Below, in pieces: positions 3,256 to 6,366 of a stretch of DNA of 64,000 nucleotides. The notes under the pieces were generated by a model. The model had not been told where the DNA came from and made no database searches. It saw nothing but the letters and a program-made list of their open reading frames with translations. A program made the translations under genes and the position numbers. Source of the DNA: Clostridia bacterium (lineage in GTDB: Bacteria > Bacillota > Clostridia > Oscillospirales > CAG-272); assembly GCA_017453305.1 (NCBI GenBank), contig JAFTKJ010000006.1, forward strand, positions 16,895 to 80,894. Reading direction: 5' to 3'. Position 1 is the stretch's first letter, and the number at the start of each line of letters is the position of its first letter.

Positions 3256-4239
3256 ATGGAATTGCCGAACAAGCGCCCCGAAAACATGGCGCGCATTAAC
3301 ACAAAAGAGCTTGCCGATGCATTTATTGCCGAGCAGGTCAAGGAAATCAGAGCACAGGTAGGGGACAAAAAGGTCCTTTTGGCGCTTTCCGGCGGCGTGG
3401 ATTCGTCGGTTGTTGCCGCTTTGCTGATCAAAGCCATCGGAAAGCAGCTCGTTTGCGTGCACGTCAACCATGGATTGATGCGCAAAGGCGAGAGCGAACA
3501 GGTCATTGAGGTGTTTGGTAAGGAGCTGGACGCAAACCTGATCTACGTTGACGCAACCGATCGTTTTCTCGATCTTTTGGCAGGCGTTGCTGAGCCCGAA
3601 AAGAAGAGAAAGATCATTGGCGGCGAGTTTATCAAGGTGTTTGACGAGGAGGCTTCCAAGCTCAAGGGCATTTCCTTCCTGGCGCAGGGAACCATCTATC
3701 CCGATATTCTGGAGTCCGACGGCGTTAAGGCACACCACAACGTAGGCGGCCTTCCCGAGGATATGGAGTTCGAGCTGGTCGAGCCCGTTCGTCTGCTTTA
3801 CAAGGACGAGGTTCGTGTGGTCGGCGAGGCATTGGGGCTTCCGCACGCAATGGTTTACCGTCAGCCGTTCCCCGGTCCCGGACTTGGCGTTCGTTGCCTG
3901 GGTGCCATCACGCGCGACCGTTTGCACGCTCTGCGTGAGGCAGATGCCATTTTGCGCGAGGAGTTCGATAAGAACGGACTTGCAGGCAAGGTATGGCAGT
4001 ACTTTATCGCGGTGCCCGACTTTAAGAGCGTAGGCGTACGCGACGGCAAGAGATACGAGGGCTGGCCTGCCATCATCCGCGCCGTTAACACCACCGACGC
4101 TATGAGCGCGACCATTGAGGAGATCCCGTACGCGCTCCTGCACCACATCACCGCCCGCATCACCGCCGAGGTAGACGGCATCAACCGCGTCCTCCTCGAC
4201 CTGACGCCAAAGCCGATTGGAACGATTGAGTGGGAATAA
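3256..4239 (+). CDS. guaA: GMP synthase, ATP-pyrophosphatase plus dimerisation domains only (no glutaminase domain)
   Basis: ALSGGVDS PP-loop, QGTIYPDILES, HHNVGGLP, PFPGPGLGVR, C-terminal KPIGTIEWE; only 327 aa. Confidence 0.93.
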   Translation: MELPNKRPENMARINTKELADAFIAEQVKEIRAQVGDKKVLLALSGGVDSSVVAALLIKAIGKQLVCVHVNHGLMRKGESEQVIEVFGKELDANLIYVDATDRFLDLLAGVAEPEKKRKIIGGEFIKVFDEEASKLKGISFLAQGTIYPDILESDGVKAHHNVGGLPEDMEFELVEPVRLLYKDEVRVVGEALGLPHAMVYRQPFPGPGLGVRCLGAITRDRLHALREADAILREEFDKNGLAGKVWQYFIAVPDFKSVGVRDGKRYEGWPAIIRAVNTTDAMSATIEEIPYALLHHITARITAEVDGINRVLLDLTPKPIGTIEWE

Positions 4240-4388
4240 TAAACGTAAGTCGAAAAAGCCTTATATATCAAGGGCTTTCGGCACGTGGGACGGATTTTTG
4301 ATACTGTTTTGATACCAAACAGAATAATAAACAACGGCAGGATGTAAATAATTCTGCCGTTATTTATATAAAAATTTGCCTTTTTGTA

Positions 4389-4417
4389 TTGACAAATGCA
4401 CCAAAAAAGGATATAAT
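4389..4417 (+). promoter_or_regulatory. sigma-A promoter of the type III toxin-antitoxin locus
   Basis: Consensus TTGACA (4389-4394), 17 bp, TATAAT (4412-4417). Confidence 0.85.
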
Positions 4418-4423
4418 ATAAAT

Positions 4424-4531
4424 GTGGGTGTATCTCAGCCCTAAATGAGAAACTTACTAAGCGAACTTCTCTTGGTTCTTTCAAGAAAGTTACAAGTGAG
4501 TGTTTCGCTACTCAGAATGCGAAAGTTATGT
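4424..4531 (+). ncRNA. putative type III antitoxin RNA (ToxI/antiQ-like), three degenerate pseudoknot units
   Basis: Lies between the promoter and a terminator upstream of a ToxN-family gene. Three units of about 36-37 nt each end in GAAA(C/G)TTA, and each can form an H-type pseudoknot. Confidence 0.8.
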
Positions 4532-4532
4532 G

Positions 4533-4561
4533 ATGAGGGCAAGGCACACTTGCCCTCATTT
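4533..4561 (+). terminator. intrinsic terminator between antitoxin RNA and toxin gene
   Basis: Perfect 11-bp stem ATGAGGGCAAG-gcaca-CTTGCCCTCAT followed by a short T run; canonical type III TA layout. Confidence 0.85.
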
Positions 4562-4579
4562 GCTATTTTGGAGGACTCA

Positions 4580-5065
4580 ATGGACAACCTTAAGCTTTAC
4601 GAAATTAACGCAAGCTATATTACATACCTCTCGGCGTATGCTCCGCATCTGTTTCAGAATAAGAAGTCCGGGCAGAAGAACGAGAGGAAATATATCGGTA
4701 TCGTTTTACATATCAATAGCTTTGATTACTTCGCGCCGCTTTCCTCGTTCAAGGACAAGCACAAGCTGATGAAGGAAGGGCTTGATTTTATTAAGATCAA
4801 GGACTATGCCGTTATCAATCTGAACAATATGTTCCCGGTGCCGCTGAGCGAAACCAAGTACGTTGACATCAGAAACGAGCCTGATCCGCACTACCGCGCT
4901 TTGCTTCTCGCCGAGTACCGTTATATCAAGTCAATTCAAGAGAAGATTTGGAAGAACGCGCAGAACGTATATAAGATTAAAATCAAGGACGGCGATGCTT
5001 CATCTCTCGCCAAGCGCTGCAACGATTTTCTTCTGCTTGAGAAGGCGTGCAAATATTACAGATAA
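4580..5065 (+). CDS. type III toxin-antitoxin ToxN/AbiQ-family endoribonuclease
   Basis: RKYIGIVL, YFAPLSS(F)K and INLNNMFPVP motifs, C-terminal CNDFLLLEKAC; GGAGG RBS precedes the ATG at 4580. Confidence 0.92.
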   Translation: MDNLKLYEINASYITYLSAYAPHLFQNKKSGQKNERKYIGIVLHINSFDYFAPLSSFKDKHKLMKEGLDFIKIKDYAVINLNNMFPVPLSETKYVDIRNEPDPHYRALLLAEYRYIKSIQEKIWKNAQNVYKIKIKDGDASSLAKRCNDFLLLEKACKYYR

Positions 5066-5076
5066 AGGGGGACAAT

Positions 5077-6366
5077 ATGAAAAACATAGCTGCAAAAAAA
5101 GTGATTGCCTCATACTATATTTTATCCCTTCTTTTAACGCTTCCGTTGTCGATACCAATTTGGCTTATCAAAAATCCTCTTGGCGTGATTCTTTATTTTC
5201 TTTGCTTCCTGATCTATATGAGGATAGCCATATACTTTGCTGTACGAATAACCATTATGTCTTCACTTTGGAAAGAGCTTGATGCTGAAAAATATGCTGC
5301 AATCATAAACGCCAAGTTTTTTCTGGCTAATTATTCCTACAAGCTGAATTTAGATTTCGCAACGGGTAACTACCAAAACGCGCACAATATTATAAATTCT
5401 GTGTTGTTGCAACACAAGAACGTCAATCAAAAAGTTTACGGACATTTGCTTCTCTGCCGTGTTTGCTTTGAGCGAGGAGATTATGAAGGAATCAAAGATA
5501 ATCTCGCTCAAATTGATAACTATCACAAATACAATCCGACGTTAAAACTTTCAAAACCGAATAAGGCAGCATATGAGTTTTACTGTGCATTTTCCAATGC
5601 CGACTATACCTCTGCCTGCGCTATCGCGGAAAAAGGTATTGATAAATACTCAAAAAAGAAAAACCTCAATTATTTAGTCTTGATGCGCCAATATCAATTA
5701 GCCGTTACAAAACGAATGAAGGGCGACATTGATGAGGCGGTTGAGCTTTTTGAAAGCATTATGGAAAAAGCCCCAAAACTTATTCTTTCAACACTTGCTC
5801 AAAAGCAGCTTGACTATATTTCCGGAGTACTTGAAGAAACAGCGCCCGAACGGTTAGAGGTCACAGAAAACCACATTGTGAAATCTAATCGCAAAATAAA
5901 AATTTCCGTGCGTATTGCTTATTGCGTAGGAATCCTTCTTATACTTGTGGGAATAATCCTTACTCAATTAGATTCTCCTAAGCAAAAAGACAAGGATTTG
6001 AACTATATTGCTCAAATAGAAAAAACTATTGAAGACGAATACGAAGAATATCAAGTTTTGGGATATTTTTATATTTATTCTGATTATGCAGATGAAACCT
6101 ATATGATGAGCATAGATTCGCTGTTTTTGGTAGAGGCAGATGGGAAACTTGATTTGCATACTCTCTACCAATTAAACGGAGAATACAAAAACATTTTGGA
6201 CGTAAAAGACATTCAAGTAGATACGCTGTATGAATATGAGATATATTTTATACCAAAAAAAGTAGAATTTATTATAACAGAAAAGGAGCGTAATATTCCG
6301 AAGGATACGCTATATTATTATGAAATAGACGGATATTATTTCTGCGTAATTAGCATATCAGATTGA
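5077..6366 (+). CDS. hypothetical membrane protein with TPR-like helical region
   Basis: Two N-terminal and one central hydrophobic segments; TPR-like GDIDEAVELFESIMEKAP; AT-rich; inside the guaA island. Confidence 0.7.
   Translation: MKNIAAKKVIASYYILSLLLTLPLSIPIWLIKNPLGVILYFLCFLIYMRIAIYFAVRITIMSSLWKELDAEKYAAIINAKFFLANYSYKLNLDFATGNYQNAHNIINSVLLQHKNVNQKVYGHLLLCRVCFERGDYEGIKDNLAQIDNYHKYNPTLKLSKPNKAAYEFYCAFSNADYTSACAIAEKGIDKYSKKKNLNYLVLMRQYQLAVTKRMKGDIDEAVELFESIMEKAPKLILSTLAQKQLDYISGVLEETAPERLEVTENHIVKSNRKIKISVRIAYCVGILLILVGIILTQLDSPKQKDKDLNYIAQIEKTIEDEYEEYQVLGYFYIYSDYADETYMMSIDSLFLVEADGKLDLHTLYQLNGEYKNILDVKDIQVDTLYEYEIYFIPKKVEFIITEKERNIPKDTLYYYEIDGYYFCVISISD

Follow-up and report, generated by a model that had tools for sequence, protein, structure and literature searches.

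A predicted toxIN module of gut Clostridia whose antitoxin RNA carries three unlike pseudoknots in a fixed order

Antitoxins in toxin-antitoxin systems of type III are usually sought as near-identical tandem repeats. The antiQ antitoxin, for example, comprises about 2.8 near-identical repeats of 35 nt. The repeats of toxIN and cptIN loci have been called near-identical, in contrast to those of tenpIN (PMC12283969; PMC13682666), and the survey of Blower 2012 (NAR 40:6158, PMC3401426) required tandem repeats, with relaxed settings of the program Tandem Repeats Finder (TRF) for 'more variable' antitoxins; it counted AbiQ/antiQ among the toxIN loci. The locus described here lies in a stretch of 64,000 nt from a Clostridia bacterium (contig JAFTKJ010000006.1, positions 16,895–80,894 of the forward strand), referred to below as the window, in which the region 4424–4561 had been predicted from the sequence alone to be a type III antitoxin built from three divergent but structurally equivalent pseudoknots. 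Comparison with related loci gives this reading good support, and the region very probably belongs to a complete toxIN module, a toxin-antitoxin system of type III and of the abortive-infection type, with three divergent pseudoknots. The assignment to a toxIN locus is borne out by the ToxN gene that adjoins the region and by a layout of the units that is shared with ToxI. The clade to which the locus belongs, found in gut Clostridia and on phage-like contigs, disagrees with the picture of near-identical repeats.

The fold of the region was examined using a pseudoknot template with a first stem (S1) of 4 bp containing at most one G.U pair, a second stem (S2) of 5 Watson-Crick bp and loops of 2–3, 0–1 and 3–7 nt. 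The scan returned exactly three sites, all on the forward strand and each with two interleaved stems of 3–5 bp and short loops, as in pseudoknots of the ToxI type. Unit 1 (4424–4456, type U1) pairs GGGT 4426–4429 with GCCC 4438–4441 in S1 and TCTCA 4433–4437 with TGAGA 4446–4450 in S2. Unit 2 (4457–4492, type U2) pairs GAAC 4463–4466 with GTTC 4475–4478 and TCTTG 4470–4474 with CAAGA 4482–4486, and unit 3 (4493–4528, type U3) pairs TGAGT 4497–4501 with ACTCA 4510–4514, where the outer pair 4497/4514 is weak and the core of S1 is 4498–4501/4510–4513, and TTCGC 4504–4508 with GCGAA 4519–4523. All six stems named in the original prediction were therefore recovered, although S1 of unit 1 consists of three G-C pairs and one wobble G.U (T4429 with G4438) and is not strictly Watson-Crick. 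Each unit ends in a linker, GAAACTTA at 4449–4456 and GAAAGTTA at 4485–4492 and 4521–4528. The predicted ending GAAA(C/G)TTA is thus present in all three, with spacings of 36 and 36 nt in place of the 36–37 nt originally given.

Dinucleotide shuffles of 4424–4530 (n = 20,000) gave 615 sequences with at least one site and 49 with at least two, and none with two or three sites in phase at 34–39 nt, in a chance control that is generous to the observation since the template was taken from the observation itself. When both strands of the 64-kb window were scanned, the toxI array was the sole in-phase pair or triple.

The three units are divergent in sequence. Units 1 and 2 are 49% identical, units 1 and 3 67% and units 2 and 3 59%, compared with 48 ± 5% for shuffled 36-mers (99th percentile 59%, maximum 64%), so that on sequence only units 1 and 3 would be clearly related. 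The S2 stems differ at four of five positions among the three units, with complementarity retained in each. Common to all three are the 36-nt period, the linker AGA-N-A-N-TTA, an AG-N ahead of S1 and the fold. The only exact direct repeat in the array is the 8-mer GAAAGTTA, and TRF reported no tandem repeat in the window array at a score of 30, at default settings or at the relaxed settings of Blower. The absence of near-identical tandem repeats, as originally described, was confirmed: what repeats is the period, the linker motif and the fold only, and the detectable, near-identical repeats by which toxIN loci are recognised are lacking.

Related loci were collected by scanning one genome per species, and the best 80 of 192 were used, with ToxN proteins 64–96% identical to that of the window. 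The loci are hosted by gut Clostridia of several families. The units U1, U2 and U3 stand in the same order upstream of ToxN in 77 of the 80; the remaining three (L023, L029 and L039) end at a contig edge, and part of unit 3 is still visible in L029 and L039. Together with the window this gave 78 RNA sequences, 66 of them distinct, and the distinct RNAs form the alignment (A1) on which the tests below were run. The cores of the units are invariant or nearly so across these 66 RNAs, that of unit 1 being unchanged in 66 of 66, even where the identity of ToxN is as low as 64%. The mean identity of orthologous units is 86, 80 and 79%, whereas units of one locus share 56–61%, which indicates that the units have not evolved in concert since the origin of the clade. 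Exactly three units were found in every one of the 87 loci of the clade whose upstream DNA could be read.

The same array is carried by viral contigs. It was kept in nine of nine IMG/VR contigs found by protein (ToxN 66–71% identical), and a search with a 14-base motif of unit 1 gave at least 11 further viral loci, with U1, U2, U3 and toxN present in 11 of 11. Among the matches listed for this motif in viral contigs, 59 of 80 do not show unit 1 in full and resemble chance matches. A quick tree built from 57 rows of ToxN placed the 31 clade rows on one side of a branch with an SH-aLRT value of 99, among them L039, whose array is cut by the contig end; the sister group of the clade (support 93) contains L100, L104 and the L102 type.

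Base-pairing was then assessed on the alignment. RNAalifold, run blind to the proposal, predicted S1 of all three units. Across the six proposed helices 97.3% of the cells pair, compared with 36–56% when the partners are slid, and double-sided changes occur at 8 pairs and in 72 cells, a number reached by none of 500 shuffles (21.3 ± 3.4). The outer S1 pair of unit 1 covaries (GC 63, AU 2, UA 1), as does the inner S1 pair of unit 3 (UA 43, CG 13, UG 10). The clearest case is S1 of unit 2, in which three of the four pairs are double-changed (in 16, 23 and 9 of the 66 rows) and none is broken.

A different fold was obtained from the single sequence, whose minimum free energy (MFE) structure is unusually stable (z = −3.8). 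Together with a long helix between units 2 and 3 that can pair in 93% of the cells, and with the number and order of units being fixed within the clade, this stability of the 107-nt RNA would suit an integrated leader that remains uncut and, as a whole, inhibits ToxN or controls toxN expression. On the same alignment, however, the MFE helices pair in 88% of the cells with only 4 double-change cells, which 76 of 500 shuffles reached, while the per-unit helices show an excess of such changes. The 36-nt period and the linker motif at the end of each unit match processed ToxI arrays, and the unit types occur in other orders elsewhere, for instance as U1-U3-U1 in L197, which fits independent modules. 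A single integrated leader is accordingly considered very unlikely, and the MFE fold itself was rejected for want of covariation.

The distribution of the unit types outside the clade was examined in a class sample of 400 genomes drawn evenly, 32 of which have ToxN; 30 loci were used (28 full-length and 2 partial matches of 45 match rows), four of them from the clade. Unlike units with compensating stems are visible by eye in L082, L086, L089, L104 and L109 of this sample. L102, with a ToxN at 36% identity, carries three near-identical units, each of which was matched by a profile of U1 (E = 4e-7, 4e-7 and 4.5e-5), and a profile of U3 gave weak matches to the arrays of L089, L107 and L106 (E = 0.002–0.03). 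The U2 profile matched nothing in the class sample beyond the clade (best E 0.44). Three viral contigs with ToxN at 35% identity (L197, L199 and L229) carry U1-U3-U1-like arrays followed by a terminator, so that the unit types are found together in loci far from the clade as well. Closer to it, L168, a viral contig with ToxN at 54% identity that was read on the reverse strand over a span reaching from some 40 nt ahead of the unit-1 motif to 150 nt beyond it, has the order U1-U1'-U3; its second unit is U1-like, so that a copy of the first type has taken the place of the middle unit. L163, a viral contig with ToxN at 55% identity that is cut by the contig end, has U1 followed by an altered U2 and an altered U3. 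Unlike ToxI units thus form a continuum with this clade at its far end.

In the clade of L102, with near-identical U1-like units, the number of units varies between metagenome contigs: L121 and L122 have three and L123 has two at 100% ToxN identity, and L151, with ToxN 84% identical, also has two. Set beside the three units of 87 out of 87 loci in the window's clade, this is circumstantial evidence for the suggestion that a heterogeneous array resists recombinational loss.

The same data bear on whether all three units act as antitoxins. Only one or two of them might do so, the others being decayed repeats that serve as spacers, as processing substrates or as parts of a leader that tunes termination or read-through. 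Only U1-type units also form near-identical arrays beside the nearest outgroup ToxN, the middle unit varies in deeper relatives (U1-U1'-U3 in L168, an altered U2 in L163), the U2 type went unmatched among class-sample loci that lie outside the clade (best E 0.44), and one full repeat is enough in systems with identical repeats (PMC12283969; PMC13682666). This reading is nevertheless unlikely: strong purifying selection acts on all three units, whose cores are invariant or nearly so across the 66 rows, and the unit with the best covariation is unit 2, where three pairs are double-changed and none broken, which is unexpected for a decaying repeat. In tenpIN, moreover, both unlike tenpI repeats rescue. 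A wider proposal, which goes beyond the toxIN module with three pseudoknots and is put forward only tentatively as having a minor chance of being correct, is that ToxI arrays are drawn from a small set of ancient, interchangeable modules (the U1, U2 and U3 types) that are swapped, duplicated and fixed in an order that differs from one ToxN lineage to another, that the transcript of this clade supplies exactly the three unlike RNAs of an asymmetric 3:3 ring, and that the unlikeness is selected. If this were true, unlikeness could bring two gains, in that units would not be lost by slippage or recombination and phage-encoded ToxI mimics might be blunted.

Repeat finding was compared across the same sets. 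In the clade, TRF run with its default settings detected none of 80 loci, and with the relaxed settings 14 of 80, which agrees with the expectation that the array would be overlooked by repeat finders. In the class sample, with 400 nt of upstream DNA and a period of 28–70 nt, 10 of 30 ToxN loci were detected at default and 19 of 30 at relaxed settings, with matches of 69–100%. Because default TRF recovers 0 of 80 clade loci and 10 of 30 class-sample loci, surveys built on repeat detection probably count too few toxIN antitoxins or pass over them in annotation. It appears to be new that most ToxI arrays in the class escape repeat finders run at default settings.

The remaining parts of the locus were located on the forward strand around the array. 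A sigma-70 promoter lies at 4389–4417, with a −35 hexamer TTGACA at 4389–4394, a 17-nt spacer and a −10 hexamer TATAAT at 4412–4417, giving 12 of 12 consensus matches; inspection of the upstream DNA of close relatives showed both hexamers to be identical there. From the position of the −10 hexamer only, the toxI transcript would start at about 4422–4424. Between toxI and toxN is a Rho-independent terminator (4532–4569) with a 12-bp stem at 4532–4560 followed by a T-rich tail, and homologous loci show by eye a hairpin and T tract in the equivalent position. A ribosome-binding site GGAGG, read from the sequence, occupies 4570–4574, 5 nt upstream of the start codon of toxN, which runs from 4580 to 5065 including the stop codon and encodes a 161-aa endoribonuclease toxin of the ToxN/AbiQ family (Pfam PF13958). 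A terminator and then toxN had been placed after the array in the original prediction, and this succession was found, with toxN starting at 4580 instead of 4581. The order promoter (4389–4417), toxI, terminator (4532–4560) and toxN (4580) is that of a toxIN locus.

The frame of toxN is open upstream, and a 206-aa open reading frame (ORF) at 4445–5065 runs in frame from unit 1 through the terminator into toxN, as if the region encoded an N-terminal extension of ToxN; many database homologues have been called at 207 aa. Only 17 of 87 loci keep this frame open as far back as unit 1, the substitutions track base-pairing and not codons, the terminator and GGAGG precede the ATG at 4580, and residue 4 of the 161-aa form is where the Pfam model begins. 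The coding reading of 4445–5065 was rejected because the frame is open in so few loci, and an extension has next to no chance of being correct. Judging by the 207-aa calls, gene callers seem to take the antitoxin RNA for part of the coding sequence.

Several features of the surroundings were also recorded. A second terminator-like hairpin of 11 bp with a T-rich tail lies at 4333–4361 (forward strand), between guaA and the toxIN promoter, and would insulate toxIN from upstream transcription. The gene upstream of it (3256–4239, forward strand, 327 aa) has only the GMP synthase C-terminal and PP-loop ATP-pyrophosphatase domains; the glutamine amidotransferase domain is missing from its product, and guaA therefore appears to be split or shortened there. 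Downstream, an ORF at 5077–6366 (forward strand, 429 aa) has a hydrophobic N-terminus and weak TPR-like Pfam matches, all below the cut-offs. Across 89 related loci, guaA is upstream in 7 and the TPR-like membrane ORF found downstream in the window is present in 3, and since they are so rarely kept beside toxN neither gene is part of the module; on the same evidence the toxIN module is mobile.

Within the clade, six loci (L054, L055, L056, L059, L069 and L072) have 108–132 nt from the end of the 124-nt RNA stretch to toxN, compared with 32–49 nt elsewhere, and about 70–90 nt extra beyond the terminator. In a more distant subclade (L031–L076 and others) the promoter is further upstream, and a short hairpin and TAACAG stand ahead of unit 1. 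Unit 3 of this subclade ends in ...GTAACAG and the same TAACAG precedes unit 1, and its presence on both sides of the array suggests a fourth processing site or could be the remnant of a further unit.

The toxN product was compared with protein families and structures. It matched Pfam ToxN_toxin (PF13958) with E = 1.5e-46 and 158.9 bits (cut-off 25) over 159 of 159 model positions, and the PADLOC AbiQ model with E = 1.3e-36. In the PDB it matched 4ATO from B. thuringiensis (E = 1.9e-18), 2XD0 from P. atrosepticum (E = 7.5e-13), 7D8O from E. coli (E = 6.5e-12) and AbiQ, 4GLK (E = 1.1e-08). An NCBIfam search with the window ToxN gave no match. Membership of TenpN/CptN was not indicated, as Pfam at E ≤ 0.01 gave ToxN_toxin only and all four PDB matches at E ≤ 0.01 are ToxN or AbiQ, none being CptN. 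The catalytic residues of ToxN are given as Lys33, Thr52, Ser53 and Lys55 in the E. coli/P. atrosepticum numbering (PMC8860590). Aligned to 2XD0, the window ToxN has Arg36, Ser55, Ser56 and Lys58 at these positions. The exchange of Lys33 for Arg also occurs in some E. coli clusters (PMC8860590), and that of Thr for Ser is conservative. The genome of the window, which is 80% complete, gave one ToxN match only and no second ToxN, and the idea that the three units neutralise several toxin variants finds no support there.

A mechanism can be proposed in which the parts and the RNA folds are those described above and in which the processing, binding, stoichiometry and phage defence would follow those of the family. 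The strong, constitutive promoter would produce a toxI RNA of about 107 nt, with the terminator stopping most transcripts and the remainder running into toxN, a layout that would leave the antitoxin in excess. Each 36-nt unit would fold into a small H-type pseudoknot with an S1 of 4–5 bp, an S2 of 5 bp and short loops, the stem sequences differing between units and the shared linker AGA-N-A-N-TTA remaining single-stranded between them. These linkers would be where ToxN, as a sequence-specific endoribonuclease, cleaves the precursor. Other ToxN proteins cut at AA|AU, GAA|AU and AAA|AA (PMC8860590), and by analogy with GAA|AU of E. coli the likeliest cut here would be AGAA|A(G/C)UUA, yielding 36-nt products 4452–4487 and 4488–4523. 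In the subclade of the window the promoter abuts unit 1, and the 5' end of that unit would be the transcript start. The unit RNAs would keep ToxN inactive in a closed ring, probably of three proteins and three RNAs as in the solved ToxIN complexes. If transcription failed, for example during phage infection, the RNA would decay and the freed ToxN would cleave RNAs. The three unit types would be old modules under selection; they are fixed in the order U1-U2-U3 in the clade and combined otherwise in distant lineages.

Several observations weigh against parts of this interpretation. A search of the region against Rfam gave no family match, the best E values of 0.61–9 being far under the gathering scores. 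The GAAA of the linker is not strictly conserved, and GAGA and GACA variants occur; what is conserved is AGA-N-A-N-TTA, and GAAA is for this reason only a putative cut site. A guanine before stem 2b, present in over half of ToxI sequences according to Blower 2012 (PMC3401426), is absent from all three units. Unit 1 of the window subclade begins 2–4 nt past the predicted start and would have no long 5' tail, which makes the closure of a ring uncertain. The outer S1 pair of unit 3 is unpaired in 34 of the 66 rows. The long helix between units 2 and 3 reaches its 93% through wobble pairs, and because it can form, the unprocessed precursor may adopt another fold. In every sequence seen, S2 of unit 1 is the same and so has no support from covariation, and S2 of units 2 and 3 varies within the clade in one of 66 rows each. 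These single rows (L053 for unit 2 and L062 for unit 3) are compensatory, and as S2 is near-invariant within the clade its support was drawn from compensation between units and in other lineages: S2 of unit 2 has a further compensatory change in L163, and among the different lineages a U2-type S2 reads GCTTA/TAAGT and U3-type S2 stems read TTCGC/GCGAA, TTCAC/GTGAA and CTCAC/GTGAG. Covariation across homologous loci, which the original prediction had offered as a check, was thus obtained for S1 of all units and, mainly through other lineages, for S2 of units 2 and 3; the invariant S2 of unit 1 showed none.

Evidence of transcription was sought in public data, where 19 sequencing runs were found for the region, all as assembled contigs and none with half of the sampled words. 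Assembled metatranscriptome contigs from four runs of three studies cover toxI and toxN at low depth and derive mostly from relatives at 90–99% identity. These assemblies, which carry no ends, strand or level and so are neither proof of transcription nor a firm guide to the start site or to processing, have no contig over 4362–4423, and two of their contigs begin at 4426 (X1) and 4430 (X2).

The clade is not without precedent. Table 1 of Blower 2012 lists the toxIN locus of Ruminococcus sp. 5_1_39B_FAA under the abbreviation 'Rum' (PMC3401426), and this genome is that of locus L071, in which ToxN is 68% identical and the same U1-U2-U3 array is present. Under the relaxed TRF settings of Blower the L071 array is returned with a period of 38, 3.5 copies and 63% matches. 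A member of the clade has therefore already been published as a toxIN locus, where such loci were treated as repeats with 'greater variability' and one consensus repeat was aligned per locus (PMC3401426). The sections consulted in that paper describe no position-fixed unit types, although Supplementary Table S1 may hold more. A search of the full text of articles, apart from their supplements, found no account of non-identical repeats in the toxIN family. With a clade member in Blower 2012 and unlike repeats published for tenpIN, the novelty claimed originally was overstated. What appears to be new is a large toxIN clade with three unit types fixed by position and order, and the sharing and rearrangement of these types across distant ToxN lineages. 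Since three different RNAs presumably bind one ToxN, the clade offers a natural test of whether recognition lies in the tails or the core, of mixed rings and of the stability of copy number.

The closest described systems can be set against the window on this basis. The ToxIN systems of B. thuringiensis pAW63, P. atrosepticum pECA1039 and E. coli (4ATO; 2XD0/2XDB/2XDD; 7D8O) have a toxin of the same family, as does AbiQ/antiQ of Lactococcus lactis (4GLK), to which the window ToxN is linked by the PADLOC and PDB matches given above. Shared with these ToxIN systems are the order promoter, repeats, terminator and toxin, the unit of about 36 nt, the H-type pseudoknot and an A-rich linker like the GAA|AU cut motif. 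The loops of 2–3, 0–1 and 3–7 nt come near those of the template that Blower 2012 gave for ToxI, with loops of 3–4 and 1–2 nt and a variable third (PMC3401426). The window ToxN is distant from the solved ToxN proteins and has Arg and Ser in place of the catalytic Lys33 and Thr52, and the solved systems have near-identical repeats that differ by 1–2 nt, whereas the units of the window are 49–67% identical and invisible to TRF. In this respect there is a likeness to tenpIN, where two non-identical tenpI repeats escape TRF, either repeat rescues and the complex contains both (PMC12283969, Sci Rep 2025; PMC13682666, PLoS Pathog 2026). There too the sequences of the repeats differ while the positions of stems and loops are kept, and the unlike repeats, two in number, are as many as the RNAs in the closed complex; tenpIN is set apart from the window by a different toxin family, longer repeats, a reported variation of up to 35% and a 2:2 complex.

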